The notes beneath the pieces were generated by a model. It made no database searches and was not told the origin of the DNA. It worked only from the letters and a program-made list of their open reading frames with translations. Of a stretch of DNA of 30,715 bases, positions 309-30,104 are shown one piece after another. A program made the position numbers and the translations under genes. Position 1 is the first letter of the stretch; each line of letters begins with the position of its first letter. The DNA lies in contig CAZUUP010000006.1 in the NCBI GenBank assembly GCA_964623105.1, forward strand, positions 1 through 30,715, given 5' to 3'. Origin of the DNA: an uncultured Akkermansia sp. (lineage in GTDB: Bacteria > Verrucomicrobiota > Verrucomicrobiia > Limisphaerales > BJHT01).

Positions 309-1160
309 TCAGCACTCATCGGTCGGGCGCACGACGCGCCAGACGGCCCACGCCACCAACCAACGCCACAGGCATCCGGCAGGAGCAGCAGGCTCGTTCA
401 GCGCACGCCCCACCAGCCTGTCAAACACGGAGCCACCCAACTGCCGAAGCGTCGCACCCAGCCCCAGCCAGGTCACCGAAAGTCCATGGCGTGCGGCCAG
501 TTGAAAGGTAATCAATGCAAAAATGTAATCGCGACGCCTGCCAGATCGTTGGTATCGAAACTTGAAGCTCACGCGCCGGCAGACACCGCCGCGTTTGACC
601 TGCTCCACGGCCCACGCGGCGTCTTCCATGGTCGGCACCGCCTCGTCGAAGCGGAGTTCTTCCCAGCGCGAACGGCGGATCATCCCCATGCTGTTGGAAT
701 AAATGGAGCCAAACTTCAGCCCTTTGGCGTGGAGTTCAGACCAGTCGATCGCGTCCGTGTAAAACCGGTCGTCGTCCCATTTGCCGCTGGCGCACACGGT
801 CCGCGGGTCGGTCATGGCGGCCGTGAGTTGTTCGATGGCGTCTGCCGATTCCAGCACGGTGTGCGAACTCAAGACCAGGATCAGTTCCGCCGGGCACCGC
901 GAGATGGCGTGGTTCAAGACCCGAGAGTGATGGTAAGGTTCGGTCCAGTTCAGGATCGTCGCCCCGACGCTGCGCAGAAGGTCCGCCGAGCCATCGGAGC
1001 TTCCGCTGTCCACGGCGACGATGAGATCCGGTTGCACCGTTTGACAACGCAAGGCCGCCAGCACGTCCGGCAGCGTGGCCGCCGAGTTTTTGAAGCGGAT
1101 GATCACGGCCAGACGCGCGCGGTGCCCGGGACGGGCCGGGATTACAGCGGGGTTGCTCAT
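309..1160 (-). CDS. Glycosyltransferase family 2 (283 aa)
   Basis: GT-A motifs VIIRFKNSAATL, VDSGSSDGS and HSRVLN. The ATG at 1160 overlaps the exosortase stop (ATGA). The N-terminal extension of the tracked 571-aa ORF is out-of-frame read-through of the exosortase gene. Confidence 0.9.
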   Translation of the reverse strand: MSNPAVIPARPGHRARLAVIIRFKNSAATLPDVLAALRCQTVQPDLIVAVDSGSSDGSADLLRSVGATILNWTEPYHHSRVLNHAISRCPAELILVLSSHTVLESADAIEQLTAAMTDPRTVCASGKWDDDRFYTDAIDWSELHAKGLKFGSIYSNSMGMIRRSRWEELRFDEAVPTMEDAAWAVEQVKRGGVCRRVSFKFRYQRSGRRRDYIFALITFQLAARHGLSVTWLGLGATLRQLGGSVFDRLVGRALNEPAAPAGCLWRWLVAWAVWRVVRPTDEC

Positions 1161-2602
1161 CGGCTCGTCTCCGTCGCGATGCGCTGCCGGGAGAAATCTC
1201 CCAAAGCCACCTGCGTTCCGAAGTGCTCCGGCGTGCAACCCAGTCGCGCGATCAACCGGTCGCTGCCCATGGAAAATGCCGCGGCGCTCATGCTTTCCAC
1301 CGGCGACGTCACGATCACATGCGCCCCGGCGGGCGACCACGGCGGCAGGGTGGCAGCGAGATACTCGCCGTAGCTCCCGAGCCAGTTCTCGCGGTGTAAA
1401 AAATATTCCCGCAGCCACCGCCGGCCATCGGTGAGCAACTCCGGATGTCCCGCCACGGCCCGCGTTTCGATCCCCCGAAAACGCAGGCACACGTTCAGCG
1501 CGTGATGTCTCCCGCCGCCCTGCGGCCCGTGCCAGATCACGTCGAGATCGGGCGCCTGACCGGGCAGGCGCAGCGCGTAACTGTTTCCACCGAGCGCGCG
1601 GCTCATCGCCACCGCCGGCGGGCTGATCCGCTCGCCGGGCAGAAGCGCAATCGCCGAACCCGCAAACGGCAGGATCAACAGCGCGCCCGCCGCGGCAAGT
1701 CCCCGCGCCGGAATGCCCGGCCCGTCGTGTGCCGGTGCCAGCGCGGCGCCGAACTCGGTAGCGTCGCCGTGCCGGATTCGCCACGCCCGGCAAAGCGACG
1801 CCAGCACGACGAGCGCGGAGCCTGCGGGTTGCATCGCCAACAGCGGGATCGTGCCGGCCAGCAACATCCATCCATCCCAGACGCGAAGGTTGCGCGCCGA
1901 CGCGAAAAACGGCGCGGACAAGAGCCACGGAAGCCAGAGCGATTCCATCGCGCTGAACCCGATTGCCACCCCGGCCCCAGCCCACGCGAGGACGCCGGCC
2001 TGACCGTCTGCCGCCACCTCCCATCGAAGTCTCATCTGCAACATCAGCAGCAGCGTCGCCAGGGCCACCACGCTCCCGCCCGGCCCGCCGACCAGCGGCG
2101 CCAGCAGCGACAGTACTGCGGATAAATAAGCCGCCTCAAACAGACGGAGCGCGCGGGGACGCCCGTCCGCCGGCATGAACCAGCCGAGGACCGGCAGCAG
2201 CCAGACGAACCCGACAAAGTTGTGAAGCTGCGGGCTTTCGACCGCGGGGAACAAAACGTGGCGGCAGGCGATCAACGTGAGAATCCTCGCAACATTCGCC
2301 GCCAGCGAGACCGGCACCGCCAGCGCCAGCCGGAGCCACAGCTGCGCCGACCACGGCTCGTTGCGCCGGCTCCACAGTGTCAGCGCCCACAGTGTCGCCA
2401 AAATGTTCAGGCCCGCACAGTCCGGCGACCACGGCACCTGGAGCGTGCCCACCTGAAGCCCGTCAACATTGTTCGCCGCGGCGAAGCCCGCCGCCTCGAG
2501 CAGCCAGACCACCAGCGGGCGGACAATGCCCGATCCCCAGTCTCCGCGGCCGGCCGCGTGCAGCAGCACAAACACCGCGCCGAGCGCGGGCGCGACGCGC
2601 AT
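1157..2602 (-). CDS. Exosortase/archaeosortase-family transpeptidase with extra TM region and C-terminal EpsI-like soluble domain (481 aa)
   Basis: Catalytic triad motifs PDCAGL (Cys), ANVARI (Asn-x-x-Arg) and QLHNFVG (His), multiple TM helices, and C-terminal RHHALNVCLRFRG resembling the EpsI H-x-x-x-x-C motif. Start placed at 2602 (TGATG coupling to the upstream stop); 2635 is an alternative. Confidence 0.82.
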   Translation of the reverse strand: MRVAPALGAVFVLLHAAGRGDWGSGIVRPLVVWLLEAAGFAAANNVDGLQVGTLQVPWSPDCAGLNILATLWALTLWSRRNEPWSAQLWLRLALAVPVSLAANVARILTLIACRHVLFPAVESPQLHNFVGFVWLLPVLGWFMPADGRPRALRLFEAAYLSAVLSLLAPLVGGPGGSVVALATLLLMLQMRLRWEVAADGQAGVLAWAGAGVAIGFSAMESLWLPWLLSAPFFASARNLRVWDGWMLLAGTIPLLAMQPAGSALVVLASLCRAWRIRHGDATEFGAALAPAHDGPGIPARGLAAAGALLILPFAGSAIALLPGERISPPAVAMSRALGGNSYALRLPGQAPDLDVIWHGPQGGGRHHALNVCLRFRGIETRAVAGHPELLTDGRRWLREYFLHRENWLGSYGEYLAATLPPWSPAGAHVIVTSPVESMSAAAFSMGSDRLIARLGCTPEHFGTQVALGDFSRQRIATETSR

Positions 2603-3660
2603 CAGCGGACTTGCGATCGAATGTGGGATACCCATTGCGCGACGTGGGGTGAGGGGTTGCGGCGTTTGAGTTCCTGCGCCCAGCGGTCCGTGGATGGCAC
2701 ATCGGCCGTCCGCGCCGCGGAGAGGAACAGAATCAGCAGGGTTTCGTCCGTGAGCGCCATGGGCGCGTGTTCCCGAAATTGGCCGAGCAGGCTCGCATAT
2801 TGTTTTTGGGAGAACGCTTTGCGCACCGCCAGTTGCGCGGTCACAGCCTGCGTCGCCGCCGCCTTCGCCGCGCCGTTTCCCGCCAAAAACCCGGCCAGCC
2901 GCGCGGTCAAGCCCGTTGCGGCACGGGTGCCCTGAGCCTGGCGCAACAGATCGGTCATTTCGTTCCGAACCGTCGCCGGCATCCGTCCCGCACGCAGCGC
3001 AGCGGCGATGACCCGCTGCGCTTCATTCGCCACGCCGCTGTTGAACTGCATGGCTTCAAACAACCGCACATCGTGCCGGGTCCACTGGGCGGGATCAGAA
3101 CCGAGGTAAGCCTCGAGCGCGGCGGCGAACTCGCCCTCATGCGCACGGACGCGGGCTTCGAGCAATGGAGGCAGGTGCCGCGCCGCGATCGCTTCGAGCA
3201 ACGCCGGCCGGTAGGGATTGGCTTCCGTGGACGCCAGTTCCTCGTGCAACCGGAACGGCGCATATTGAAACTCCGCCGGAATTTGCGCGGTCGGCAGCGC
3301 CCGGAAGATTTCCAGTGCCGCCGCAGGTTCGCCGCTCTCCACCCGCAACATCGCAAGCAGGTATCTCGCGGGCACATGCTCGGCGACCGAGGCCTCGCAT
3401 TGCAGCGCCTCGAACAATTCCGGCGTCGCCGCCGCCGCCTCGGCGGTGGGTGCGATGTCCGGCCAGTCCATCCGGGCCAGGCGCGAGGCGAGAGGTTCGC
3501 CGGTCTCGCCAGCGAGCACGTTTCGCCCTGCGAAAACTGAAGCGCGCCGCGGCGCAGGCTTCGTCGTCGTCGCGCGCCAGAAGAACGCCCCCGTTCCCAG
3601 CAGCGCCAGGATGGCGGCGAGCAGCGCGATTCGTTGGTGTCGATGCATGGTCATGATCAT
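2602..3660 (-). CDS. Hypothetical membrane-anchored alpha-helical (TPR-like) protein (352 aa)
   Basis: N-terminal hydrophobic helix RIALLAAILALLGTGAFFW, then Ala/Leu-rich helical repeats (AAALEIFRAL, FAAALEAYL). Translationally coupled at both ends. Confidence 0.75.
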   Translation of the reverse strand: MIMTMHRHQRIALLAAILALLGTGAFFWRATTTKPAPRRASVFAGRNVLAGETGEPLASRLARMDWPDIAPTAEAAAATPELFEALQCEASVAEHVPARYLLAMLRVESGEPAAALEIFRALPTAQIPAEFQYAPFRLHEELASTEANPYRPALLEAIAARHLPPLLEARVRAHEGEFAAALEAYLGSDPAQWTRHDVRLFEAMQFNSGVANEAQRVIAAALRAGRMPATVRNEMTDLLRQAQGTRAATGLTARLAGFLAGNGAAKAAATQAVTAQLAVRKAFSQKQYASLLGQFREHAPMALTDETLLILFLSAARTADVPSTDRWAQELKRRNPSPHVAQWVSHIRSQVR

Positions 3661-4490
3661 TGGCGGCCACGGCGGGCCAGGATGACGCCGAGCACGCCCA
3701 GCAGCCAGAGTGGCGGCGTGGGAGCGCCCGGAGTTGTGTCTGCCGAGTTGAACGCGATTCCCTCCGGCGACGCGGCGACGCCGAAGTTGGCGGCCTCAAG
3801 CACCGCCGCGTCCCCGGCCCCGAGGAGGGCGAAGTCCTCGAATCCGCCGGAGAAATCAAAAAAGGTTTCGTTGCCCTGCGTGCGCGTGGCGGCCGTTTCG
3901 AGCAGTTGCACGTTGACCCTGGCCGACAACAGCGTCCCCTGAAACGCCACGTCCCGGATCTGGATCACATCATCGAGCTGCCCCAGGTTGAACCCGGAGG
4001 TGCTGCCCGTCAGCGCGCTGCTGCCACCCTTGCCGAAAAGCGTGTGAAACGTCCGGGCCTCGGTGCTTCCCGACTCGCGGATCAGGGCGCTCGTGCTCGT
4101 GAAGAAATCGCGGAAATTGTAGCTCCCGGCCGTCGTGGTGACCTGCAGTTCGAGCTGCTTGATCGCCACGCCGATCGAATCGGAGGTTTCATTTCCCGAG
4201 GCGTTTTCATTCAGGTCCACTCCCAGCGACAGCGTTCCGTTCGGCCCCACATACTGCTGGAATGCGCCGGGCGAGATGTCCTTCAACACGTCGATGACTC
4301 CCGATCCCTGGTAAATCTTGTCCGTCAGCATCACCGGCACCTGCGCCCGCACCATCGGCGGCAGGACGGAAACCCCGAGCCAGAGGAACAGCAGAACCGC
4401 CCAGCCCCCGGGCGCTTTCCCGGGCGACCCAGCGCGATTCCTGCGGGCACTTCCGCGGCGCGGGATTCTTTGCAATGCGACGTTTTTCAT
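3657..4490 (-). CDS. Secreted protein with a C-terminal PEP-CTERM-like sorting signal variant (APTP); predicted exosortase substrate (277 aa)
   Basis: Signal-peptide-like WAVLLFLWLGVSVLPPMVRA-QV, an S/T/G-rich beta-type mature domain, and C-terminus TTPGAPTP-PLWLLGVLGVILA-RRGRQ (motif, TM helix, basic tail). The exact start is uncertain. Confidence 0.82.
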   Translation of the reverse strand: MKNVALQRIPRRGSARRNRAGSPGKAPGGWAVLLFLWLGVSVLPPMVRAQVPVMLTDKIYQGSGVIDVLKDISPGAFQQYVGPNGTLSLGVDLNENASGNETSDSIGVAIKQLELQVTTTAGSYNFRDFFTSTSALIRESGSTEARTFHTLFGKGGSSALTGSTSGFNLGQLDDVIQIRDVAFQGTLLSARVNVQLLETAATRTQGNETFFDFSGGFEDFALLGAGDAAVLEAANFGVAASPEGIAFNSADTTPGAPTPPLWLLGVLGVILARRGRQ

Positions 4491-4507
4491 CTCGGCGGCG
4501 CAGCGTC

Positions 4508-4522
4508 GCAGGGTTCATGCCA
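4508..4522 (-). promoter_or_regulatory. Sigma54 (-24/-12) promoter of the exosortase operon
   Basis: Minus strand reads TGGCATGAACCCTGC (GG-N10-GC), 18 nt before the 4490 ATG, divergent from a bEBP gene. Confidence 0.7.
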
Positions 4523-4605: not shown

Positions 4606-4648
4606 CTTCATTGCAATCCGCCGATGTTGCAGGGAAACTGCATTGCAA
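4606..4648. promoter_or_regulatory. Candidate enhancer (UAS): three TGCA(A/G) half-sites phased at 16 bp
   Basis: CTTCA-T-TGCAA (4606), TGCAG (4628) and CTGCA-T-TGCAA (4638). Right halves lie at 4612, 4628 and 4644, about 110-150 bp upstream of the predicted sigma54 start site. Confidence 0.5.
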
Positions 4649-4652
4649 TCGC

Positions 4653-6125: not shown

Positions 6126-7538
6126 GTGAAGGAAATCCTCAAACTGCTCGTGGTGGTGACGGGCTACGGCCTGCTGGCGCCGCTGCTGGGCTGGGCGCTG
6201 GCGAAGCGCCGCGCGGCCGAACGCGCCGCGCTCTGCCTGCTGGTCTTCATGACCTCGTGGTTTCCCGGCAAGCTCACGCTGATGCTCGACTCGGTGGAAC
6301 TTTATCGCGGCCACACCAAGGGCTTCGAGTTCTCGCTGCTGGTCGCGCTCGGCATCGCGCTCACGGTCTGCTCGTTCGTCAACCGCCCGCCGGACTTTCG
6401 CCGGATGCCGCCGGGGCTGTGGTTGTACCTGCTTTACTGCGGCGTGAGCTGCCTGTCGCTCGCCGCCGCACCGAACCCGGTGTTCGGCCTGATGGCCCTG
6501 TGGAAATTCAGCTCGGCCGCGCTGGTCTTCGCCGGCGCGTGCCATGCCTTCCGCGACGAAACCGACCTGCGCTGGGTGCTGCGCACGCTGGCCGGCTCGC
6601 TCATCCTGCAGGCGCTGGTGTGCGTGAAGATGCGCTACCTCGACGGCCGCTGGCAGGTGCATGGCTGGTTCGAACACCAGAATCCGATGACGATGTGGGC
6701 CTATCTTTGCGCACTGCCGCTGCTGGCGGTCGCGCTCGCGCCGGGCACCAGCCGGAACGACACGCTGCTTTTCCTGACGGCCACCGCGGCGACGGCCGTG
6801 GCAATCCTGCTTTCGGTGTCGCGCGCCGGGCTGGCCGCGTTTGTCTGCGGCTCCGCGCTGGTAACGGTGCTCGCCCATCTGCGGGGCGTGACGGTGAGAA
6901 AGTTCGCCATCACCGGACTCGGCGCCACCGCCGCACTGCTCGCCGGATTGCTGGCCCTCGACTCCCTCATGGCGCGCGTCCAGGAAGACCGTCAGCGCGA
7001 GAACGAGCGCGATCTGCGCGCGGTGCTCAACCAGCAATCCGCGGCCATGCTGCGCGACTCGTCCGTGGGGATCGGCTGGAACAACTTCGGCATCGTCAAC
7101 AGCCTGCCTCACGAGCGCTACGTCAGCCTCATGATGGACTGGGACGCGGAGCGCGGCTTCCGCATCATCGACGAGAACTACGAGGCCGCGCCGCTGACCG
7201 AAAGCCTCTACTGGCTGCTGCTGTCCGAGACCGGCTATCCGGGGCTGGTCAGTTACCTTGCCTTCCTGGCCATCACGCTCTGGTGGGCGGCGCGCGGGCT
7301 GGTCCGGCACTGGAACACGACGCTCGGATATTTCATCGGCGGCGTGCTCGTGGCGCTCGCGCTGACCTACATGCATGGAACGGTCGAACGCGTCCTCACT
7401 CAGACCAAGAACCTGTGCGCCTGGCTGATCTTCGCCGGGTTCATGGCCCGCATCGAAATGTCGCGCCGGTCGCGTTCCGCGCGGATCCCAACCACAGCGC
7501 CGGCGTTGCCGTTCGGCGCGCGGCCCGCAATCGCTTGA
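6126..7538 (+). CDS. O-antigen ligase / Wzy polymerase-like membrane protein (Wzy_C family, 470 aa)
   Basis: Many TM helices, GWFEHQN, LSVSRAGL, a large periplasmic loop with GIGWNNF, then YWLLLSETGYPGLV. GTG start. Confidence 0.85.
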   Translation: MKEILKLLVVVTGYGLLAPLLGWALAKRRAAERAALCLLVFMTSWFPGKLTLMLDSVELYRGHTKGFEFSLLVALGIALTVCSFVNRPPDFRRMPPGLWLYLLYCGVSCLSLAAAPNPVFGLMALWKFSSAALVFAGACHAFRDETDLRWVLRTLAGSLILQALVCVKMRYLDGRWQVHGWFEHQNPMTMWAYLCALPLLAVALAPGTSRNDTLLFLTATAATAVAILLSVSRAGLAAFVCGSALVTVLAHLRGVTVRKFAITGLGATAALLAGLLALDSLMARVQEDRQRENERDLRAVLNQQSAAMLRDSSVGIGWNNFGIVNSLPHERYVSLMMDWDAERGFRIIDENYEAAPLTESLYWLLLSETGYPGLVSYLAFLAITLWWAARGLVRHWNTTLGYFIGGVLVALALTYMHGTVERVLTQTKNLCAWLIFAGFMARIEMSRRSRSARIPTTAPALPFGARPAIA

Positions 7539-7941: not shown

Positions 7942-9306
7942 ATGACCACTCGGCCACGCGATCATCTCACGCCCGCGCCCAGCCGCGCGCGGCGGCCGCG
8001 CGTGCTGCTCGTCGCGGAGTCCGCCAACCCGACTCTGACGAGCGTGGCGTTGATCGGCTGGAGCCTGAGCCGGGCGCTGGCGAAGGTGGCGGACGTGCAT
8101 CTCGTGGCCGAAGCGCGCAATCAGCGCGACATCGCCGCCGCTGGCACGGACGGCATGCAATTCACCCCGATCGACAATCATCGTTGGGAACACGCCGCGT
8201 GGCGGATCGGCAAATTCCTGCGCGGAGGCACGGCGCTCGGCTGGACCACGGCGTCCGCGCTGGCGACGCTTGCCTATCCCGCGTTCGAGCGCCGCGTGTG
8301 GCGGCACTTCGGCCCGGCGATCCCGCGGGGCGACTACGACGTGGTCCACCGTGTCGCGCCTAATTCGCCCGCCACCCCGAGCCTGCTCGCCGGCCGCTGT
8401 GCGCGGGCCGGCGTGCCGTTCGTCCTCGGGCCGTTGAACGGTGGCGTGCCGTGGCCCGCCGAGTTCGCCCACCTCCGCCGCGCCGAGCGCGAATGGCTCA
8501 GCCCGTTGCGGGCGTGTCACCGCCTGCTGCCCGGCTTTCACGCAACGCGCCGCAACGCCGCCGCCGTGCTCGTCGGGGCGCGTTTCGCCTGGGACGAAAT
8601 GCCCGCGCGCTACCGCGACAAGTGCATTTTCCTCCCGGAAAATGCGCTCGCTCCCGAACGTTTCCCGCGTCGCGAACGCGCACCCTTCTGCGCGCCGTTG
8701 CGCGTCGCCTTTGTCGGCCGCCTCGTGCCGCTCAAGGGAGTGGACATGCTCCTCGAGGCCGCCGCGCCGCTGATCCGCGCCGGACGTCTGCGGCTCGACA
8801 TCATCGGTGACGGCCCGGAGCTGCCGTCGTTGCGCGGACAGGCCGATCGCCTCGGCATCAGCGACGGCGTTGATTTTCCGGGCTGGATCGAGCACGCGCG
8901 GCTGGCGGAGCGCCTGGGGCGGGCGCACATCTTCGGTTTTCCGAGTGTGCGCGAGTTTGGCGGCGGAGCGGTCCTCGAGGCCATGGCGCTGGGTCTGGTG
9001 CCGCTGGTGCTCGACTACGGCGGCCCGGCCGAACTCATCCCGCCGGGCACCGGTTTCACCGTGCCGATGGGCACCCGCGCGGACATCATCCGGGGACTGG
9101 CCGGACACCTCGAGCGAGTTGCCGCGTGCCCCGGCGATCTTGCCTCAATGGGCTGCCGGGCGCAGCATCACGCCTTGAACAATTTTACGTGGGACGCCCA
9201 GGCGCGGCGGATGGTGGACGTGTACGAATGGACCCTGGGCCGCCGGGATTCCAAGCCCGACTGGGGCAGGCCCTTTGGCTTCGGCGCGCCCGCAGGCTCC
9301 AACTGA
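7942..9306 (+). CDS. Glycosyltransferase family 4 (454 aa)
   Basis: RVLLVAESANP, AFVGRLVPLKGVDMLLEA and the E-x7-E motif REFGGGAVLEAM. Confidence 0.92.
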   Translation: MTTRPRDHLTPAPSRARRPRVLLVAESANPTLTSVALIGWSLSRALAKVADVHLVAEARNQRDIAAAGTDGMQFTPIDNHRWEHAAWRIGKFLRGGTALGWTTASALATLAYPAFERRVWRHFGPAIPRGDYDVVHRVAPNSPATPSLLAGRCARAGVPFVLGPLNGGVPWPAEFAHLRRAEREWLSPLRACHRLLPGFHATRRNAAAVLVGARFAWDEMPARYRDKCIFLPENALAPERFPRRERAPFCAPLRVAFVGRLVPLKGVDMLLEAAAPLIRAGRLRLDIIGDGPELPSLRGQADRLGISDGVDFPGWIEHARLAERLGRAHIFGFPSVREFGGGAVLEAMALGLVPLVLDYGGPAELIPPGTGFTVPMGTRADIIRGLAGHLERVAACPGDLASMGCRAQHHALNNFTWDAQARRMVDVYEWTLGRRDSKPDWGRPFGFGAPAGSN

Positions 9307-9942: not shown

Positions 9943-12922
<2,980 letters not shown>

Positions 12923-12926
<4 letters not shown>

Positions 12927-22218: not shown

Positions 22219-22236
22219 GCTTATCCACCCCCTGCA

Positions 22237-23427
22237 ATGAAACCTACCCTTGGCCTTTTCATCATGATCGACGCGATGGGCTGGGAAATTCTGCGGCACG
22301 ATTCCTTCGGACACGATTTCGCGCCGACCCGCAAGCGCCTCGGGAGCGTGTTCGGCTACAGCTCGGCCTGCGTGCCGTCCATCGTCTCGGGCCGCTGGCC
22401 GGCGGAGCACCACAACTGGTGCTATTTCGTCCACGATCCGCAGAACTCCCCGTTCCGTTCGCTGCGCCCGTTGCGCTGGCTGCCCAGGGCGTTGACCAGC
22501 CGGCGTTTCTTCCGGCGCGCCCTCACCCGCTGGGTCCGGTCGCAGCTCGGTTTCCAAGGCTACTTCGACCTCTACAACATCCCGTTCCAGCACATCCACG
22601 CCTACGATTTCACCGAGAAAAAAAATCCGCTCCAGCCCGGCGGCATGAACCGGGGCGAAAACATTTTCGACTTCCTCGCCGCCGAAAACATCCCGTGGTT
22701 CGTCAGCGATCCCGGTCGGACCGAGGAGCAGAACCGCGACGCGCTCGCCGGCCACCTGCGCCGGGGCGACATCGATTTCGCCTTTCAATACTGGCCCGGA
22801 CTCGACGGCCTGTTGCATCGCGTCGGCAATGCGTCGCCCGAAGTGCCGGCCCGCCTCCGCCTCTACGGGCAGTGGATCCACGAATTGCTCGCCGCCGCCC
22901 GCCAGCGCTACGCGGACATTCATCTCTACGTCTTCAGCGACCACGGCATGGCCAACTGCGACGTTCACCTCGACCTGATGGCCCGGATCGAGGCGCTCCC
23001 GCTGCGGCAGGGGATCGACTACGCGGTGGTTTACGACTCGACCATGGCCCGCTTCTGGTTCTTCCACGCGAACGCACGCCGCCTGATCACCGCCGAACTC
23101 CAGGCGATTCCGCAGGGCCGCATCCTGCCCGACGCGGAATTGGAATCCCTGCACACGCGATTCGCCGACCACCGCTTTGGCGAACTGATCTTCCTGGTGG
23201 ACGAAGGCGTGCTGATCGTCCCCAGCCACATGGGCGAACGCCCGATCCGCGCGATGCACGGCTATCATCCGTCGGCTCCGCACAGCTTTGCCGCGCTGCT
23301 CACCAACCAGCCGGAAATTCCCGCTCACGTGACTGCCATCCCGCATCTCCACGGCGTGATGAAGCACACCGCGCAACTGGCCCGCGCGCAAAACCGGGCC
23401 GCCCTGCAACCCCTCCAACTCGCATGA
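22237..23427 (+). CDS. Alkaline phosphatase superfamily (nucleotide pyrophosphatase/phosphodiesterase-like) protein, no signal peptide (396 aa)
   Basis: Metal-ligand motifs MIDAMG, LDGLLH, FSDHGM and AMHGY; nucleophile region GYSSACVPSIVSG. Confidence 0.85.
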   Translation: MKPTLGLFIMIDAMGWEILRHDSFGHDFAPTRKRLGSVFGYSSACVPSIVSGRWPAEHHNWCYFVHDPQNSPFRSLRPLRWLPRALTSRRFFRRALTRWVRSQLGFQGYFDLYNIPFQHIHAYDFTEKKNPLQPGGMNRGENIFDFLAAENIPWFVSDPGRTEEQNRDALAGHLRRGDIDFAFQYWPGLDGLLHRVGNASPEVPARLRLYGQWIHELLAAARQRYADIHLYVFSDHGMANCDVHLDLMARIEALPLRQGIDYAVVYDSTMARFWFFHANARRLITAELQAIPQGRILPDAELESLHTRFADHRFGELIFLVDEGVLIVPSHMGERPIRAMHGYHPSAPHSFAALLTNQPEIPAHVTAIPHLHGVMKHTAQLARAQNRAALQPLQLA

Positions 23428-24185
23428 CCAACGCCGCACTCCCAGCACCTCCGACCCTCCTCCAACGGACCCTCTGGTTCCAAATGTGGGAGAATCTAGC
23501 CAGCCGCTGGCGCTTCAAGTTCACACTCCCCCGGATCCGAACCGTCGCGCTCGAGGGCGTCCGCCTCGACGTCGCCTCGTTGTCGGGCGTGATGAAAAAC
23601 AACCTCCTGCTCGGCCGCTATGAGGTGCAGGAGCGGCTGATGGTCCAGCGTTTTCTCACGCGTGACGACGCCGTGCTCGAACTCGGCGGTGCCATCGGTT
23701 TCATCGGCCTCTACTGCCAGACCCGGCTTGGCATTTCGCGCTACGCCACGGTCGAGGCCAACCCCGCCACGGTCGAACTGTTGCAGCGCAATTACGCGCT
23801 GAATGACCGCCGGCCGGTGGTCTGGAACCTCGCGCTGGCCGGTGCCGACGCGGAGGTCGCGCTCGAGGTCGGTGGCGAATTCTGGGAGAACTCGACGGTC
23901 GGCGGAATCACCACGGGACGGACCGTCCGCGTTCCCGGGACGACCCTTGCGGGCGTGCTTCGCCGTCTCGACTTCGCGCCCACGGCCCTGATCGTGGACA
24001 TCGAGGGCGCCGAACAGTTTCTCGATCCGCGCCAGATTCCCGCCAGCGTCACCAAGCTCATCATCGAGCTGCATCCGCGCATCATCGGCACCGAGCGCGT
24101 GTTCCGCCTCATCGCCGGCCTTGTCAACGCTGGCTTCCGGGGAGTCCACGAAGAATCCGGCACCGCGGTCTTCCTGCGCCCATGA
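23424..24185 (+). CDS. FkbM-family methyltransferase (253 aa)
   Basis: VLELGGAIG, VEANP and LIVDIEGAE. ATGA overlap. Confidence 0.88.
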   Translation: MTNAALPAPPTLLQRTLWFQMWENLASRWRFKFTLPRIRTVALEGVRLDVASLSGVMKNNLLLGRYEVQERLMVQRFLTRDDAVLELGGAIGFIGLYCQTRLGISRYATVEANPATVELLQRNYALNDRRPVVWNLALAGADAEVALEVGGEFWENSTVGGITTGRTVRVPGTTLAGVLRRLDFAPTALIVDIEGAEQFLDPRQIPASVTKLIIELHPRIIGTERVFRLIAGLVNAGFRGVHEESGTAVFLRP

Positions 24186-25738
24186 ACTACGCCGAGATCA
24201 AGCACCACATCTGGCGCAATTCCGTGTCCAACTACGTGCGCACCCTCCTTGGGATGGTCGTGGGGTTGATCACGTTCCGCCTGCTCTACCAGGCGTTGGA
24301 CCGCGAGGAGTTCGGGTTCTGGTCGCTGCTCTGGAGCCTCTTCGGTTACGGCAGCCTGCTGGATCTCGGCTTCGGCTTCGCAGCGCAGAAACAGGTCGTC
24401 GAGCTGTCGATCAAGCAGGACTGGGACAAGCTCGGCCGGGTGCTCAGCACGATCCTGGTCTTTTACGCCGCGATGGCGGCCGTGATCGCGCTGGCCGTGG
24501 TACTCGGCGCGGCGGCGCTTGTCGGCTGGCTGGGAATTTCCGCGGCGAAGTCTGACGAATTCCGGCGCGTGCTGGTCTGGTTTTTCGCAGGGCTGTGCTT
24601 CGCGTTTCCGCTCGGTGTTTTCCCAGAAATCCTCCGCGGCCAGCAGCGCATCCGCCTCGCCAACCAGCTCGTCTCCGCGGCGCTCGTCCTGCGGCTCGCC
24701 TTCATCGCCGCCGCCGTCTGGCTGCACTGGAGCCTCACCGCCCTCACGATCATCGCCCTGGTGTTTGCGCTCGTGCCGGACGCGCTCGCGGGGGTTCTCG
24801 CGCTGCGCTCGATGCCCGCCGTGCGCCTGAGCCCGCGCCGGTTTTCCCCGGCGCTGATCCGCGAGACCATGCGTTTCTCGCTCTACGCGTATCTCGGCTC
24901 GACCACGAATCTGCTGCTCGGCAAGACCGACCAACTGGTGCTCGGCGCCACGTTGTCCGTCGCCTCGGTCGGCCTCTACCAGGCCGGCGGACGCGTCGCC
25001 GAAGTCTTCCACCAGTTCACCCGGCAGGTGCAGGAAACCCTCTCGCCGGCGGCGGCCCATCTCCACGCGCTGGGCGAGCGCGCCGCCCTCGGCGATCTGC
25101 TCGTCAACAGCCTCCGCTGGAGCGTCGTGATTGCGACGCCGCTCTATCTGCTCTGCGCCTTTCATCTCCCGGAACTGCTCCGCCTCCTCACCGGCGAACG
25201 CGTCGCCCCGCCGGAAACCTGTCTCGTCGGCCACGTGCTCCTCGCGTGGTTCTACACCACCATCCTCACGCACAGCGTTTCCAAGCGCATCTTCATGATG
25301 TGCGGACACGAGCGCCGGCTCATGTGGCTCGGCCTCGCCGAGGCCGTGGCGAATCTCCTCCTCAGCATCGCGCTCGTCCTCGTGTTCCGGAATGTCGCCG
25401 CTGTCGCCGTCGGCTCGCTCCTGCCCACGCTCTTCTTCGGCTGGGTTTTTCTCTGGCCGTGGATGGCACGCGAAGCCGGGCTGACCGCCGGAGAGTTGTT
25501 CCGCCGCGCGATTCTGCCGGCGTGGATCGCGTGTGTGCCCATGCTGGTGTTCCTGCTCGCCGCCCACGTTGGCGCGGTGTTTCCCGCGGACAATCCCTGG
25601 CTGCCTGTGTTGCTCCAGGGTTCTGCCGCCGGGCTTATCGCGGCCTTCACGCTCTGGCGCGTCGCGCTGAACCCGCGCGAGCGCGATCAACTTTCCCGCC
25701 GCCTGCCGCTGCGCCTCCCGAACCTCCTTCCCGCATGA
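24182..25738 (+). CDS. wzx: Oligosaccharide flippase (Wzx/MOP family, 518 aa)
   Basis: About 12-14 TM helices, EEFGFWSL, LLDLGFG and GKTDQLVLG...VGLYQAG, in a glycan cluster. Confidence 0.88.
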   Translation: MNYAEIKHHIWRNSVSNYVRTLLGMVVGLITFRLLYQALDREEFGFWSLLWSLFGYGSLLDLGFGFAAQKQVVELSIKQDWDKLGRVLSTILVFYAAMAAVIALAVVLGAAALVGWLGISAAKSDEFRRVLVWFFAGLCFAFPLGVFPEILRGQQRIRLANQLVSAALVLRLAFIAAAVWLHWSLTALTIIALVFALVPDALAGVLALRSMPAVRLSPRRFSPALIRETMRFSLYAYLGSTTNLLLGKTDQLVLGATLSVASVGLYQAGGRVAEVFHQFTRQVQETLSPAAAHLHALGERAALGDLLVNSLRWSVVIATPLYLLCAFHLPELLRLLTGERVAPPETCLVGHVLLAWFYTTILTHSVSKRIFMMCGHERRLMWLGLAEAVANLLLSIALVLVFRNVAAVAVGSLLPTLFFGWVFLWPWMAREAGLTAGELFRRAILPAWIACVPMLVFLLAAHVGAVFPADNPWLPVLLQGSAAGLIAAFTLWRVALNPRERDQLSRRLPLRLPNLLPA

Positions 25739-27084
25739 AGACCACCACCCCCACCCACGCGCCCAGCCGGATGGCCACCGCCATCGGCTGGCAAAACCCA
25801 CCCCCGTCATCCGACCGCACGCAATCGCCACTGCGCGTCGCACACATCCTCCGCAAATACGATCCCCTCGAATGGGGCGGGACGGAAACCGCCGTCCTGC
25901 GCCTCCTCGAAGGCCTCGCCGCGCACGGCGTGCAATCCTCCGTTCACTGCCCCGCGCTGGCCGCGCGCACCGGCCGCGATCCGCTCGCCGAAGCGGGCGC
26001 GCAAGTCCGCCGCTACCACGCCTTCCTCCCCGTGGCCGGCATTTCCGGGCAGCGGCGGCGGCAACTGGTCCGGTGGGGTGGCAACCTCATGTCGTTCGAC
26101 CTCTTCACCCGGTTGCTGCGCGAGCCGCTCGACGTCATCCACACCCACGCCCTGAACCGCCTCGGGGGCATCGGGCTTGCCGCCGCCCGTTGGCGCAACC
26201 TGCCGCTGGTCGTCACCATTCACGGCGGCTGGTTCGATCTGCCCGCCGAGGCCATGGCCGCGCTCACCGCTCCGCTCTTGGGCGGATTCGAGTGGGGCCG
26301 CGTGCTCGGCCTGTTGCTGCAAAGCCGGCGCCTGCTGGAAAAGGCCGACGCCGTCCTCACCTGCAATCCGCGCGAAGCGGACCTCATCCGCCAGCGGCAC
26401 CCGCATCAGCGCGTGCTCGTGCAACCGCATTCCGTCCCGGCCGCCCGCTACGCCGTCGATCATCGTGCCGAAGCCCGGCAAGCGTTTCCGCAAATCGCCG
26501 GCCGGGATGTCGTCCTCTGCGTCGCACGGCTCGATCCGGTGAAAAACCAGCGCTGGCTGGTCGATCAACTGCCGGTCGTGGTGAAGCGCCATCCGCGCGC
26601 GCTGCTCGTCTTCGCCGGACCCGAGACATTTCCCGGCTACGAAGCCACCCTCCGCCACGCGCTGGGCCGTCTCGGCCTCGAGGACCGCGTCCTCTTCACC
26701 GGCAGCCTCGAACCCGGTGGCGGCCCGCTGATCGGCCTGCTCCAGCACGCCCGCGCCACCGTGCTGTCGTCCACCGCGGAGACCTTCGGGCTGGCGATTA
26801 TCGAAGCTTGGGCCGCCGGCTCGCCGGTCATTTGCTCACGCACCTCGGGCGCGGAATCACTCATCCGCCACGGCGAAACCGGCTGGCTTTTCCCGCTCGA
26901 CAATCCCGCTGAATTCCACGCCGCCCTCGACCGCGCGCTGCAACCCGGTCCGGCCCGCGAGCGGATGATCGATGCCGCCTCGACGCTCGTGCGCACCACT
27001 TACGACACCGTCGCGGCCGCCCGCCGCGTCGGCGATCTCTACGCTGAACTCCACCAACAAAAACCTGGAAGAAACCAACCATGA
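25735..27084 (+). CDS. Glycosyltransferase family 4 (449 aa)
   Basis: WGGTETAV, DVIHTH, VARLDPVKNQ and E-x7-E in AETFGLAIIEAW. Confidence 0.92.
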   Translation: MKTTTPTHAPSRMATAIGWQNPPPSSDRTQSPLRVAHILRKYDPLEWGGTETAVLRLLEGLAAHGVQSSVHCPALAARTGRDPLAEAGAQVRRYHAFLPVAGISGQRRRQLVRWGGNLMSFDLFTRLLREPLDVIHTHALNRLGGIGLAAARWRNLPLVVTIHGGWFDLPAEAMAALTAPLLGGFEWGRVLGLLLQSRRLLEKADAVLTCNPREADLIRQRHPHQRVLVQPHSVPAARYAVDHRAEARQAFPQIAGRDVVLCVARLDPVKNQRWLVDQLPVVVKRHPRALLVFAGPETFPGYEATLRHALGRLGLEDRVLFTGSLEPGGGPLIGLLQHARATVLSSTAETFGLAIIEAWAAGSPVICSRTSGAESLIRHGETGWLFPLDNPAEFHAALDRALQPGPARERMIDAASTLVRTTYDTVAAARRVGDLYAELHQQKPGRNQP

Positions 27085-27968
27085 AATACGTAATCATTCG
27101 CGACGACGACACCTGCGCCCTCACACCGGTCGCCTGCCTCGAGCGCCTCTACCGGCCGTTCCTGGACCGCGGCCTGCCGGTCAACCTGGCCGTCATCCCC
27201 AACGTCAACACCCGCGCCACCTGGGCGGACGGCTCGCCCGAGGGATTCCTGCTGGCCCGGCGCGGCGACGAACCCGAGCACCTGCCCATCGCGCGGCATC
27301 CGGCGCTGCTCGAGTACCTGCGCGCCAATCCCCGGCTCGAGCCGCTGCACCACGGCTGCGAACACACCTATCTCGAGTTCGATCAGGGCAACCGCGCCGA
27401 CCTCACACGCCGGCTCGACGATGGCGCCCGCTGCTTCGCCGACGCCGGCCTCACGCCGCCGGAGACGTTCGTCGCGCCGTACGATCAGCTTTCACTCGCC
27501 GGCTGCACCGAAGTCGCCGGCCGTTTCCGGGTCTTCTCGACCGGCTGGCTCGACCTCCGCCGCTTGCCGCTGTCGTGGTGGCCCCGCGTGCTCTCGGCCA
27601 AACTGCGCGGCGAACCCCACGTCCATCTCAACGGCCTGACGCTGCTGACGCACCCGGGCTGCCTGCTCTCCCACAAACACCCGCCCGCCTCCATCCTGCC
27701 GCGCATTCAGGCGGCCGTGGCCCGCAACCAACTGACCGTCCTCGTCACGCACTGGTGGGAATATTTTCACGGCGGCCGGCCCAACGAGGCGTTCATCGAC
27801 GTGCTCCACGCGACCGCCGGCTGGCTCGCCCGTCAGCCGGACGTCCGCGTGATCAAGTTTTCCGAACTGGCCGACGAGCGCTCCGCGGCCTTCCACCAAG
27901 TGTTCCCGCCGGTCTCCGCGGCCGGTTGCATGCGGCCGGACTACGCGGACGCAACCCTCTCCTCGTAA
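27081..27968 (+). CDS. Polysaccharide deacetylase-like (NodB/DUF2334 type) protein (295 aa)
   Basis: IIRDDD catalytic/metal Asp motif, HHGCEH (H-x-x-x-H) and FVAPY. Confidence 0.75.
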   Translation: MKYVIIRDDDTCALTPVACLERLYRPFLDRGLPVNLAVIPNVNTRATWADGSPEGFLLARRGDEPEHLPIARHPALLEYLRANPRLEPLHHGCEHTYLEFDQGNRADLTRRLDDGARCFADAGLTPPETFVAPYDQLSLAGCTEVAGRFRVFSTGWLDLRRLPLSWWPRVLSAKLRGEPHVHLNGLTLLTHPGCLLSHKHPPASILPRIQAAVARNQLTVLVTHWWEYFHGGRPNEAFIDVLHATAGWLARQPDVRVIKFSELADERSAAFHQVFPPVSAAGCMRPDYADATLSS

Positions 27969-27972: not shown

Positions 27973-28848
27973 ATGAACCCGCCCGCCGTGAGCATCATCA
28001 TGCGCTCCTACAACGAAGCCTGGGCGCTGCGCGAAACGCTCCCCGCCCTCGCCGCCCAGCAGCCGCCCGCGCACGAACTCATCGTGATCGACTCCGGCTC
28101 GACCGACGGCTCGCAGGAACTCATCCGCGCCGCGCGCCCCGCGCATTTCGTGCAGATCACGCCGGCGGAGTACAATCCCGGCCGCGTCCTCAACACCGGC
28201 ATGCGCCTGGCCCGCTCGGAGTTCTGCCTCTTCCTCAATGCCGACGCCACGCCGCAAAACAACCAGTGGCTCGCACCGCTCGCCGCGGCCCTGCAGCAAC
28301 CCCGCGTCGCCGCCTGCTACGGCCGCCAGATTCCCCGGCCCGACTGCCGCGCCGTCTTCGCCTGCGACTACGAACGCTGCTTCGGACCCCGCCGCGAGGC
28401 CGCGCGCTGGGAGCATTTCTTCAGCATGGTCAGCAGCGGCCTCCGCAAGGACGTGTGGTCGCGCCGCGGTTTCCGCGAGGACCTGCAATTTGCCGAGGAC
28501 GACGAATACACGCGCTGGTGCCGGTTTCACGGCTACAAAACCACCTACGTGCCCGAGTCGGTGGTCATGCACTCCCACAACTATTCTCCCGCTCAGGCGC
28601 GTCGCCGGAGCTTCGGCGACGCCTACGCCATCGGCCGCGCCGGGTCCGCCAACCCGCGCGACACCCGCTGGCTCAAAACCGTCGCCCTCGGCTGGCTGAG
28701 CGACCTCCGCCACGACCTGCGCTTCTGTTTCCGCACCTGGCGATGCCGCGAACTGCCCCACGCCGCCCGCATCCGCTGGGCGCAGCGACGCGGACGCCTC
28801 GCCGGTTTTCAACAGGGCCTCGCCACGCTTTCCCCGACCGCATCATGA
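27973..28848 (+). CDS. Glycosyltransferase family 2 (rhamnosyltransferase-like, 291 aa)
   Basis: SIIMRSYNE, IDSGSTDGS, FLNADA, YGRQIP, AEDDE and VMHSH. Confidence 0.9.
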   Translation: MNPPAVSIIMRSYNEAWALRETLPALAAQQPPAHELIVIDSGSTDGSQELIRAARPAHFVQITPAEYNPGRVLNTGMRLARSEFCLFLNADATPQNNQWLAPLAAALQQPRVAACYGRQIPRPDCRAVFACDYERCFGPRREAARWEHFFSMVSSGLRKDVWSRRGFREDLQFAEDDEYTRWCRFHGYKTTYVPESVVMHSHNYSPAQARRRSFGDAYAIGRAGSANPRDTRWLKTVALGWLSDLRHDLRFCFRTWRCRELPHAARIRWAQRRGRLAGFQQGLATLSPTAS

Positions 28849-30104
28849 AAATCCTGACCCTTTCCAACCTCTATCCTCCCCACTACGTCGGCGGTTACGA
28901 ACTGCGCTGTGCCGCCACCGTCAACGCCCTGCGCGCCCGCGGTCACGAGGTGAACGTCCTCACCTCCAATCACGGCGTCGAGGCCGCCGCGTCCGCGCAG
29001 GCTGAAGACGGCGTCGCGCGAACACTCCGCATCCACGGCTTCTTTGGCCATCCCTGGCTCAACATCTGGCGGCTGCGCAAACTCGAACTGCACAACAACC
29101 GCGTGTTGCGCGCGGCCGTGGCGCAATTCCGCCCGGACGTGGTTCACGTCTGGAACCTCGGCGGCCTCTCGAAATCCCTCTGCCTCACCTTGCAGGAATT
29201 GGGCGTGCCGACCGTTTACGACGTCTCGGATCACTGGATCGCCCGGAGCCTCGTGGCCGATGTCTGGCTCGACTGGTGGAACCGTCCGCAGCCTTCGCTG
29301 CCCGCGCGCCTCCTGCGCGCTCTCTGGCGCGCGACCGGTGCGCAGGCGCGCTGGAGCGCCGTGGCCCCCACCGGCCCGGCTGGGTCCGTCCGATTTTCGC
29401 GGCTCTACTTTTGCAGCCGCGCGCTCCGCGAATTCACCGCCGCCCGCGGCCATGCCGTCGGTCACGGCGCTATCATCCACTGTCCGGTGGACACCGCGCG
29501 TTTCTCCGGAGAGCCCGCGCCCGCGTCGCACGACTTGCGCCGGTTCCTCTACGTCGGCCGCCTGGCCGACGACAAGGGCGTCATGACCGCCCTGCGCGCC
29601 GTGGCCGCGATGGGGGAACGTTTCACCGGCGAATTGAGCATCTACGGACACGGCGATCCCGCCTACACCCGGAACCTCAAGGACTTCGTCGCCCGCCACC
29701 GGCTGCCGGTCTCCTTCCACACCGCCAACGCAGCCGAGATGCCCGACGTCTATCGCGCACACGATGCGCTGCTGTTCACGTCGGAATGGGAGGAACCCTT
29801 CGCGCTCACGCCGATCGAGGCCATGGCCAGCGGCCTGCCCGTCATCGGCACCACGACCGGTGGCAGCAAGGAACTTTTCCACCACGGCGTCAATGCCCTG
29901 ACCTACACCGCCGGCAACGCCACCGAACTCGCCTCCCGGATCACGGATCTGATGGCCAACCCCGCCCGGCGCGCACGGATCGCCGCCAACGGCCAAACCG
30001 AGGTCTGCAAACGCTTTCCCCAAAAGGCCATCATCGACCAGATCGAACGCTACCTCCTCGCCAGCCTTCCCGCCCAACCACGCCCCGCGCCCGCCCTGGT
30101 GTGA
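28845..30104 (+). CDS. Glycosyltransferase family 4 (419 aa)
   Basis: NLYPPHYVGGYE, DVVHVWN, YVGRLADDKG and E-x7-E in EEPFALTPIEAM. Confidence 0.92.
   Translation: MKILTLSNLYPPHYVGGYELRCAATVNALRARGHEVNVLTSNHGVEAAASAQAEDGVARTLRIHGFFGHPWLNIWRLRKLELHNNRVLRAAVAQFRPDVVHVWNLGGLSKSLCLTLQELGVPTVYDVSDHWIARSLVADVWLDWWNRPQPSLPARLLRALWRATGAQARWSAVAPTGPAGSVRFSRLYFCSRALREFTAARGHAVGHGAIIHCPVDTARFSGEPAPASHDLRRFLYVGRLADDKGVMTALRAVAAMGERFTGELSIYGHGDPAYTRNLKDFVARHRLPVSFHTANAAEMPDVYRAHDALLFTSEWEEPFALTPIEAMASGLPVIGTTTGGSKELFHHGVNALTYTAGNATELASRITDLMANPARRARIAANGQTEVCKRFPQKAIIDQIERYLLASLPAQPRPAPALV

Follow-up and report, generated by a model that had tools for sequence, protein, structure and literature searches.

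The stretch of DNA analyzed here (the window) is one complete contig of 30,715 bases, CAZUUP010000006.1, from a source genome of 6.26 Mb (99.7% complete, 958 contigs). It carries a glycan biosynthesis cluster, probably of the Wzx/Wzy type with an exopolysaccharide as its product, within which lie the genes for an H-NOX heme sensor, a histidine kinase phosphorelay and a STAS-based partner switch. The source is a subdivision-3-type verrucomicrobium from soil or freshwater. A preliminary description of this DNA had proposed a verrucomicrobial lineage, in agreement with the 80 best related loci, which are all Verrucomicrobiota records with the exception of a few oddly labeled bins. At the G+C content of the window (67%) long spurious open reading frames (ORFs) are frequent; reading frames were selected by third-position GC and then by profile matches (Pfam and NCBIfam). 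Nearly every part in the preliminary list was recovered by these profile searches, with corrections, and two stand-alone receivers (12923-13309 and 21468-21839) were found beyond that list. The features of the window are as follows.

309..1160, minus strand: GT2 glycosyltransferase (Glycos_transf_2, 47 bits), the final gene of the minus-strand operon
1157..2602, minus strand: exosortase, treated as exosortase Z (XrtZ; NF050190, 451 bits with a cut-off of 475, profile positions 3-454 of 460)
2602..3660, minus strand: 352-amino-acid membrane-anchored protein, helix-rich by sequence, a conserved partner within the XrtZ cassette
3657..4490, minus strand: protein with a PGAP-CTERM sorting signal (NF050189), the presumed XrtZ substrate
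4507..4522, minus strand: weak sigma-54-like -24/-12 site ahead of the substrate gene, TGGCATGAACCCTGCG
4609..4650, no strand: boxes of the divergent control region, two of CATTGCAAT and one resembling TTGCA-N-TGCAA
4653..6113, plus strand: sigma-54 bacterial enhancer-binding protein (bEBP) with a predicted N-terminal pseudo-receiver (Sigma54_activat, 209 bits; AAA_lid; helix-turn-helix)
6126..7538, plus strand: Wzy_C-like (O-antigen ligase/polymerase-like) multi-pass membrane protein (Wzy_C, 30.4 bits, under the cut-off of 31.7)
7942..9306 (likely start), plus strand: GT4 glycosyltransferase resembling the EPS_EpsH model (NF041879, 494 bits with a cut-off of 800, profile positions 1-429 of 431)
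9382..9942, plus strand: H-NOX heme sensor (HNOB)
9939..12926, plus strand: cytoplasmic hybrid kinase with the order HNOBA-PAS-GAF-PAS-HisKA-HATPase-REC (profile matches), in ATGA overlap with the H-NOX gene
12923..13309, plus strand: stand-alone receiver REC1 (Response_reg, 95.7 bits; canonical residues present)
13306..15282, plus strand: REC-HisKA-HATPase-REC-HPt hybrid kinase (profile matches)
15418..15433, plus strand: consensus sigma-54 promoter, TGGCACGCCGATTGCA, an exact match to the consensus
15470..16669, plus strand: GT4b glycosyltransferase, the best-conserved core gene (profile match)
15639..15665, no strand: two exact TTGCA-N-TGCAA palindromes within the GT4b coding sequence, a candidate enhancer (motif count and conservation)
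16724..17476, plus strand: small polyprenyl-phosphate glycosylphosphotransferase (PHPT), the priming enzyme (Bac_transf, 221 bits; TIGR03025, 272 bits)
17481..18305, plus strand: hexapeptide-repeat transferase (Hexapep)
18352..19230, plus strand: FkbM-family methyltransferase (TIGR01444, 94.5 bits)
19379..19681, plus strand: STAS protein of the anti-sigma antagonist type with a DSSG phospho-Ser motif (STAS, 54 bits)
19688..21475, plus strand: RsbW-like Ser kinase-GAF-PP2C fusion (HATPase_c_2, 72 bits; GAF_3; SpoIIE, 137 bits)
21468..21839, plus strand: REC2, a stand-alone receiver whose gene overlaps the 3' end of the kinase/phosphatase gene (Response_reg, 94.6 bits; canonical DD, D, T and K)
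22035..22050, plus strand: sigma-54-like site, perfect in its -24 half but weak at -12, TGGCACGCCGCCAGCG, 28 nt ahead of the AlkP-like gene
22078..23427, plus strand: alkaline-phosphatase-superfamily (type I phosphodiesterase) protein, AlkP (Phosphodiest, 58 bits)
22207..22217, no strand: exact TTGCATTGCAA palindrome (motif search)
23424..24185, plus strand: probable S-adenosylmethionine (SAM)-dependent methyltransferase (weak methyltransferase matches), in ATGA overlap with the preceding gene
24182..25738, plus strand: Wzx flippase (Polysacc_synt, 53 bits; NF041503; ten hydrophobic segments)
25735..27084, plus strand: GT4d glycosyltransferase (frame by third-position GC; Glycos_transf_1, 104 bits)
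27081..27968, plus strand: DUF2334-like (polysaccharide-deacetylase-like) protein (DUF2334, 23.5 bits, under the cut-off of 26)
27973..28848, plus strand: GT2 glycosyltransferase (Glycos_transf_2, 74 bits)
28845..30104, plus strand: GT4c glycosyltransferase (Glycos_transf_1, 88 bits)

The priming PHPT, the Wzx flippase and the glycosyltransferases of a Wzx/Wzy-dependent pathway are all present in the window. The glycosyltransferases number seven (two GT2 and five GT4), and PHPT is a priming enzyme of the small single-helix type. ATGA overlaps join many neighboring genes, including signaling genes with glycan genes. The Wzy_C-like protein has eight hydrophobic segments, and its orthologs come after the bEBP gene in five related loci (L019, L020, L027, L096 and L089). 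On the other strand, an operon running from 4490 to 309 encodes the PGAP-CTERM protein, the helical membrane-anchored protein, XrtZ and a GT2 whose ATG at 1160 overlaps the XrtZ stop codon. The ORFs at 25872-26912 and 26972-27976 were rejected as Arg/Pro-rich nonsense in the wrong frames, the true frames being those of a GT4 and the DUF2334-like protein. No convincing gene was found at the contig ends (1-308 and 30105-30715), where third-position GC was flat and family matches were absent.

The H-NOX protein matched HNOB (PF07700) over profile positions 1-162 of 163 with 172 bits, compared with a cut-off of 25.5, and was the only H-NOX found by an HNOB profile search of the genome. Its top match was Nostoc Alr2278 (E = 8e-61), and it also matched the beta1 subunit of soluble guanylate cyclase (sGC; E = 6e-33). 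In the alignment with Alr2278 the proximal His and Pro matched, the Y-x-S-x-R motif read Y-F-T-H-R, with Thr in place of Ser, and the distal-pocket position did not contain Tyr. The relay residues were likewise intact. The H-box (SHELRTPL) and the receiver Asp were present in the HNOBA kinase, as were the H-box, both receiver Asp residues and the HSLQG motif of the HPt domain in the second hybrid kinase. Thus both H-boxes and the HPt His are retained, and in each of the four canonical receivers the acidic pocket is intact along with Asp, Thr and Lys. Profile searches of the window found neither a DNA-binding response regulator nor an enzymatic output domain encoded in the relay. The stand-alone receivers REC1 and REC2 are its natural end points, and REC2, rather than the bEBP, is more plausibly where the relay terminates.

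Relatives of the locus were sought in a species-level genome collection with GT4b (15470..16669) as the query, and 213 were found. Synteny was assessed in the best 80 of these, in which the window proteins were searched by tblastn; genes downstream of GT4b were counted in the 55 loci with at least 7 kb of flank and genes upstream of it in the 60 loci with at least 6.5 kb. The best 80 relatives, in which GT4b is 67-78% identical, belong to Pedosphaera and subdivision 3, Limisphaerales, Verrucomicrobiales including Prosthecobacter, and Chthoniobacteraceae. Downstream, the same gene order was found for PHPT (48 of the 55 loci), the hexapeptide transferase (47), STAS (48), the RsbW-GAF-PP2C fusion (46), REC2 (48), AlkP (47, with 57-77% identity) and Wzx (36); orthologs of the SAM methyltransferase (23424..24185) were present in 17. 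Upstream, a related kinase was present in 48 of the 60 loci and H-NOX in 30. The placement of the NO sensor in cis by the preliminary description was therefore borne out, H-NOX and the HNOBA kinase lying inside the locus here and directly upstream of the core in half of these relatives. The identity of H-NOX rose with that of GT4b (Spearman 0.55, n = 33), which fits co-inheritance, with the reservation that loci related to each other cannot count as independent.

This linkage extends to other families. In G393 the genes are rearranged, yet H-NOX, its kinase, HPt, STAS, a receiver and the enzymes remain together. A genome of a third family (G352) holds a divergent version with Wzx, STAS, PHPT, an H-NOX (27% identical), kinases, the kinase/phosphatase, a receiver and AlkP. 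In an unbiased sample of the phylum, distant versions retain PHPT and, in most cases, the hexapeptide transferase and STAS. Thus, signaling and glycan genes are syntenic in relatives across several families, contrary to the loss of synteny that the preliminary description had named as a refuting outcome, and this synteny, with the divergent version, places the signaling genes within the glycan cluster. The cluster is layered. A deep core consists of GT4, PHPT, the hexapeptide transferase and STAS, followed by a widely shared kinase/phosphatase and receiver. The H-NOX relay is found in about half of the nearer loci, and the sigma-54 layer in the nearest clade only. The layout shared among relatives suggests that glycan production is probably under the control of NO.

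The STAS motif reads FVDSSGLG, of the DSSG type. Tandem STAS genes precede the kinase/phosphatase gene in many relatives (L019, L020, L024, L027, L029, L032, L033, L035, L043 and L060), the second copy being approximately 33-44% identical to the window STAS; the window has a single STAS gene. Among 47 orthologs of the kinase/phosphatase, the N-box, the G2 box and all PP2C metal-binding Asp motifs are conserved. The G1 box of these orthologs reads D-x3-G and not D-x-G-x-G, making the kinase activity of the RsbW-like domain uncertain. REC2 is kept with the kinase/phosphatase in 46-48 of the 55 loci. Profile searches found no sigma factor gene in the window, and a defined output partner for the switch was not encountered.

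The STAS gene lies next to or right behind PHPT even in the most distant versions of the cluster. A STAS-PHPT fusion in distant verrucomicrobial loci was considered and rejected, since in L105 the two are separate genes, with STAS 15 nt after PHPT. Anabaena has a single protein, All4160, that combines STAS with a Bac_transf sugar transferase; phosphorylation by the kinase Alr3423 inhibits this transferase, and HenR, a REC-PP2C phosphatase, lifts the inhibition (PMC13555669). Given the adjacency in distant loci and the All4160 precedent, STAS probably acts, by analogy, on the priming transferase PHPT.

The sigma-54 activator has intact Walker A, Walker B and GAFTGA motifs (GESGVGKE, DEVGEM and GAFTGA) and a weak C-terminal HTH_23 match, and rpoN is present in the genome. 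Its 135 N-terminal residues gave no Response_reg, FleQ or VpsR match in Pfam at E<=5, by which an N terminus of the FleQ or VpsR type was ruled out. A phmmer search over 1.84 billion representatives returned just 40 relatives, indicating that this bEBP forms a small family of its own; the full-length relatives have 444-524 amino acids, the size of a bEBP. In an alignment of 24 members the DD pair after beta1 and the Lys after beta5 were missing, beta3 ended in V-Y-L-V-P, and a conserved Pro stood at the place of the phospho-Asp in every member. The AlphaFold (AF2) model of the N terminus (pLDDT 87, pTM 0.80) showed a (beta-alpha)5 layout, and the best 50 Foldseek matches in the PDB were nearly all receiver domains (TM 0.47-0.64; VbrR, DctD, PhoP, FixJ and NtrC1). 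The modeled N terminus is thus a predicted pseudo-receiver, with the receiver fold but without the acceptor residues. Because these residues are missing, phosphotransfer of the kind that links SypF to SypG in Vibrio fischeri is unlikely, and this receiver fold would be controlled by some partner or ligand instead.

The sigma-54 promoters of the preliminary description were upheld in part. One site (TGGCAC-N5-TTGCA, 37 nt ahead of GT4b) is perfect, and a matching site lies 44-59 nt ahead of the GT4b ortholog in the six closest loci only (L018, L019, L020, L024, L027 and L096); the other two are weaker GG-N10-GC sites. The promoter at 15418 is conserved in the near clade alone, where the bEBP is likewise present in most loci that have sufficient upstream sequence. 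An enrichment of sigma-54 sites by count was rejected, with 2 found and 2.4 expected, and the support for these sites lies in position and conservation only. TTGCA-N-TGCAA palindromes occur six times in the window, compared with 0.51 expected, and none of 100 shuffles reached six. Most copies are near candidate sigma-54 promoters. The intragenic pair is conserved at positions +169/+174 of GT4b in L019, L020, L024, L027 and L096, and boxes like those at 4609..4650 precede the bEBP gene in L019, L033 and L089. We infer that these palindromes are candidate binding sites of the bEBP.

The window exosortase scored 24 bits under the NF050190 cut-off, and its orthologs in G022, G352, G409, G393 and G045 scored 478-627 bits; it was treated as a divergent member of XrtZ. 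The motifs DC(A/S)G, AN-x-x-R and ESPQLH, which carry the Cys, Arg and His, are invariant in seven sequences, and TIGR04178 gave 37.9 bits (cut-off 23). A frameshifted or truncated gene was rejected; the Pfam EpsH match covers the second half only, but the NCBIfam XrtZ match runs from end to end. The presumed substrate, encoded two genes upstream of XrtZ, matched NF050189 with 27.1 bits in a six-frame search and 22.7 bits by hmmscan (cut-off 25). It is the sole PGAP-CTERM protein of the genome. Its orthologs are 48-60% identical. The mature protein has a conserved domain of approximately 210 amino acids (49-59% identity across families; L003, L011 and L013), an invariant Asn-rich NEN-x-x-GNE motif (NENASGNET in the window) and then a variable Thr/Pro-rich linker. 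A structure model built from a 4-sequence alignment was of low confidence (pLDDT 67), and a Foldseek search with it returned nothing below E = 0.04, its matches being jelly-roll-like noise; an atlas search with the substrate returned generic sorting-signal clusters only. Orthologs of the 352-amino-acid protein, 34-35% identical, lie between substrate and XrtZ in G022 and G045, and searches with this protein gave no family match except for a chance-level TPR_4.

XrtZ is rare: a sample of 401 genomes of the phylum yielded five with it, each from a different family, and three genomes of the same genus yielded none. The genomes of five close relatives, whose loci combine the H-NOX relay with the bEBP gene, the Wzy_C-like gene or both, likewise gave no XrtZ match. 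The GT2 and bEBP genes are direct divergent neighbors in L019 and L089, and in the window the substrate, the helical protein and XrtZ stand between them; in G393 the GT2 ortholog (309..1160) adjoins XrtZ. Because the cassette lies between genes that are adjacent in relatives and XrtZ is rare, it looks like a recent, lineage-specific insertion. The scarcity of XrtZ, its apparent lack in close relatives and the apparent insertion argue against the exosortase as a general part of the circuit. In G022 the same cassette is found beside an orthologous bEBP; the 60 kb examined there contained no glycan genes, and H-NOX and the GT4 are on another contig. G393 has two XrtZ paralogs (G393:C30:453376-454650 and G393:C37:320130-321494), one inside the glycan cluster without a substrate and the other with a PGAP-CTERM substrate and a bEBP approximately 13 kb away.

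All six XrtZ genomes found carry H-NOX. In the sample of 401, in which XrtZ, H-NOX and the bEBP were all counted, H-NOX was present in 5 of 5 XrtZ genomes and in 16 overall (Fisher p = 5e-8), an overlap that genome size and lifestyle may confound. A strict co-occurrence of XrtZ, H-NOX and the pseudo-receiver bEBP was rejected, since of the 5 genomes in the sample with the bEBP family 3 have H-NOX and 2 have XrtZ.

Collectively, these data lead us to favor on balance, and with modest confidence, a chain predicted from sequence that runs from NO through H-NOX, the HNOBA kinase, HPt, REC2, the kinase/phosphatase and STAS to the priming step, with a separate sigma-54 layer. NO bound by H-NOX would change autophosphorylation of the adjoining HNOBA hybrid kinase. 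From the kinase His the phosphoryl group would move to the receiver of that kinase, then to HPt in the second hybrid kinase, and last to a stand-alone receiver, with REC2 as the likely terminus and REC1 as a branch or sink. REC2 would shift the balance of the fused Ser-kinase/PP2C phosphatase, in either direction, and unphosphorylated STAS would permit glycan assembly, most likely at the priming glycosylphosphotransferase. In a transcriptional layer separate from the relay, the sigma-54 activator would bind the TTGCA-N-TGCAA palindromes and drive up to three operons. Owing to the position of the XrtZ cassette, this genome would produce one sorted surface protein along with the glycan.

Several observations weigh against this chain. 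NO was assigned as the H-NOX ligand from family resemblance alone. With two kinases, one HPt domain and five receivers, the proposed phosphotransfer route is one of several. The STAS target is proposed from gene adjacency and from a fusion protein of another phylum, and in the window two genes separate STAS from PHPT; G393 has STAS and a receiver but no kinase/phosphatase at that spot. No H-NOX was found nearby in the distant versions sampled, and 30 of the 60 closer loci also have no upstream H-NOX. Profile searches of the window found no Wza (Poly_export) or chain-length (Wzz) protein. As for the sigma-54 layer, the site at 4507-4522 ends 17 nt from the ATG and is of doubtful status, the site at 22035 has a poor -12 element, and most palindromes lie downstream of the promoters in coding sequence, where codon conservation could partly explain their retention. 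Finally, the contig ends on both flanks of the locus, which may therefore extend past either end of these 30.7 kb.

The input and the output of the proposed chain each admit alternatives. Ligand specificity is not certain from sequence, and O2, CO or the heme redox state could take the place of NO; the title of one recent paper (PMC12329717) speaks of oxidative activation of an H-NOX. However, the closest solved relatives are the Nostoc H-NOX and sGC beta1, which bind NO and CO but not O2, and no distal-pocket Tyr was aligned, so that we regard a different ligand as unlikely. At the other end, the H-NOX relay and the partner switch might be passengers that control motility, cyclic di-GMP or a sigma factor encoded elsewhere. 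The relay encodes neither an output domain nor a DNA-binding response regulator, H-NOX is apparently unlinked in Prosthecobacter fluviatilis, half of the close loci have none upstream, and the source genome of the window has four other SpoIIE-family proteins, all of which favor this reading. This explanation appears decidedly unlikely in view of a linkage that has outlasted gene rearrangement in no fewer than three families and with two lineages of H-NOX, the ATGA overlaps with glycan genes, the retention of STAS with PHPT in the most distant versions and the control of a Bac_transf enzyme by STAS shown experimentally in Anabaena (PMC13555669).

Two further readings concern what is wired to the relay and what is glycosylated. 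Under strict Syp-type wiring the HPt kinase would phosphorylate the bEBP, and NO would directly gate the glycan and exosortase operons. The parts list agrees with that of Syp, and a functional tie is plausible since a bEBP gene is divergent to an HNOBA-PAS-HK-REC-HPt kinase gene in L106 and adjoins the H-NOX gene in G045. We nevertheless consider such wiring very improbable, the bEBP having no acidic pocket and no Lys in any of the 24 members, Pro at the phospho-Asp and no Response_reg match, and most close loci having the relay without this bEBP nearby. Alternatively, the lipid-linked glycan might serve mainly in protein glycosylation, with the Wzy_C-like protein as an O-oligosaccharyltransferase and the PGAP-CTERM protein among its targets; the product would then be a surface layer of glycoprotein instead of a free exopolysaccharide. 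The Wzy_C domain is also found in O-oligosaccharyltransferases of the PglL type. The borderline Wzy_C match, the lack of Wza and chain-length matches in the window, the small single-helix priming enzyme and the Asn-rich motif and Thr/Pro-rich linker of the substrate would all suit this reading. Against it, the glycan core is present in more than 200 genomes and XrtZ with its substrate is rare, so the substrate cannot be the main purpose of the glycan; in addition, the G393 version has two Wza-like export proteins, and the fold search with the substrate was uninformative. Protein glycosylation as the main use of the glycan is thus, in our assessment, decidedly unlikely as well, and the gating by NO of a glycosylated surface protein layer, suggested in the preliminary description, is speculation.

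A weaker tie between the relay and the activator can be envisaged alongside the favored chain. The pseudo-receiver bEBP could be a second output of the H-NOX relay or the STAS switch through docking of HPt, a receiver or STAS, without phosphotransfer; we hold this to be unlikely. If true, NO would gate both glycan assembly and a sigma-54-dependent, XrtZ-sorted protein, which would explain the presence of H-NOX in every XrtZ genome found. The distant pseudo-receiver bEBP of L106 and the kinase divergent to it (4933-9395) are on a metagenome contig and have no glycan genes nearby.

The closest known parallel is the syp locus of Vibrio fischeri, which has STAS, a Ser-kinase/PP2C protein with a receiver, an HPt hybrid kinase and a sigma-54 activator, and in which NO acts through the unlinked HnoX/HahK (PMC12369376). 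This parallel, drawn in the preliminary description, holds at the level of parts and logic, in that a polysaccharide locus has the same types of regulator, an H-NOX input through a hybrid kinase, and control both on and below transcription. It does not hold for the step from SypF-HPt to SypG, because the receiver of the bEBP is predicted not to be phosphorylatable, or for the domain order of SypE. SypE has a central receiver, whereas in the window GAF lies in the middle of the kinase/phosphatase and the receiver is a separate downstream gene; REC2 and the kinase/phosphatase thus resemble SypE with its receiver split off, and also HenR (REC-PP2C). H-NOX and its kinase are inside the locus here, unlike HnoX/HahK. 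Moreover, an exosortase cassette is attached, and Wza, OmpA-like and chain-length genes were not seen in the window.

The partner switch also resembles the HenR/All4160/Alr3423 module of Anabaena sp. PCC 7120 (Harada et al. 2026, PMC13555669), which combines STAS, an RsbW-type kinase and a receiver-linked SpoIIE phosphatase and in which the regulated enzyme is of the Bac_transf type. That module controls a polysaccharide enzyme directly and not a sigma factor, and STAS-Bac_transf proteins are rare outside cyanobacteria (PMC13555669). In Anabaena the module consists of three scattered genes with a STAS-transferase fusion, whereas in the window STAS is separate, the kinase, GAF and phosphatase are fused, the receiver is separate, and the switch is clustered with biosynthesis genes and an upstream H-NOX relay.

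The joining of an exosortase to glycan genes and a bEBP, noted previously for this DNA, was found as described. However, an exosortase with exopolysaccharide (EPS) genes, sigma-54 sites, a bEBP and a TPR protein is a pattern known since 2006, with PrsR/PrsK/PrsT (Haft et al. 2006, PMC1569441), and XrtZ/PGAP-CTERM is curated in NCBIfam; the exosortase part of the locus is therefore of a known kind. Shared with the PEP-CTERM/EpsH system are the exosortase and substrate by EPS glycosyltransferases, the GG-N10-GC site before the substrate, the sigma-54 activator and possibly, with weak support, a TPR-like accessory protein. The window differs in that XrtZ has a short N terminus and a long C-terminal extension, there is a single dedicated substrate with a PGAP-type in place of a PEP ending, the activator has a pseudo-receiver, and there is no PrsK-type membrane kinase.

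As in the H-NOX/HnoK systems of Proteobacteria and in Nostoc Alr2278, a stand-alone H-NOX gene directly precedes and overlaps a histidine kinase gene. In contrast to those systems, the operon here lies within a glycan cluster, and the kinase begins with an HNOBA domain of the sGC type. Among the known bacterial NO sensors, H-NOX proteins are the principal ones; their outputs, usually unlinked and found by genetics, are in described cases cyclic di-GMP enzymes, quorum sensing or an unlinked locus. Literature searches found no paper on H-NOX inside a polysaccharide cluster, on H-NOX with an exosortase or on XrtZ/PGAP-CTERM, and nothing relevant on H-NOX with Verrucomicrobia or with partner switching. 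As far as these searches reach, the pseudo-receiver activator family and the co-occurrence of XrtZ with H-NOX are new observations.

The window thus brings together a sensor, a complete phosphorelay, a phospho-switch and the presumed target enzymes in one conserved cluster, in a phylum in which signaling is almost unstudied. Because genes from sensor to enzyme lie in one cluster, the proposed path from NO to a surface glycan is testable gene by gene. If STAS does act on the priming transferase, the control principle described for Anabaena in 2026 would extend beyond cyanobacteria. Culturable Prosthecobacter strains with the cluster core and H-NOX genes make experiments feasible. Prosthecobacter fluviatilis KACC 12649 (G445, L054) has the cluster core, by its record name on the first contig of the assembly, and two H-NOX genes with matches on contigs C8 and C9, which are thus apparently unlinked to the core.

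Other differences in gene content were observed among the relatives. The FkbM methyltransferase gene sits between those for the hexapeptide transferase and STAS, and none of the 80 related loci yielded an ortholog; the gene appears to have been gained in this lineage alone and would alter the glycan. The two Wza-like (Poly_export/SLBB) genes of the G393 cluster version (L010 5096-10152, G393:C37) are absent from the window, and one of the encoded proteins has 1028 amino acids. That version also has a LuxR-type response regulator, an AAA_22 ATPase and a GT4-WecG fusion, none of which is in the window. The records of the metagenome-assembled genomes with L020, L042, L050 and L082 are labeled Bifidobacteriaceae, Cyanophyceae or Akkermansia muciniphila, and these labels are probably binning or naming errors.

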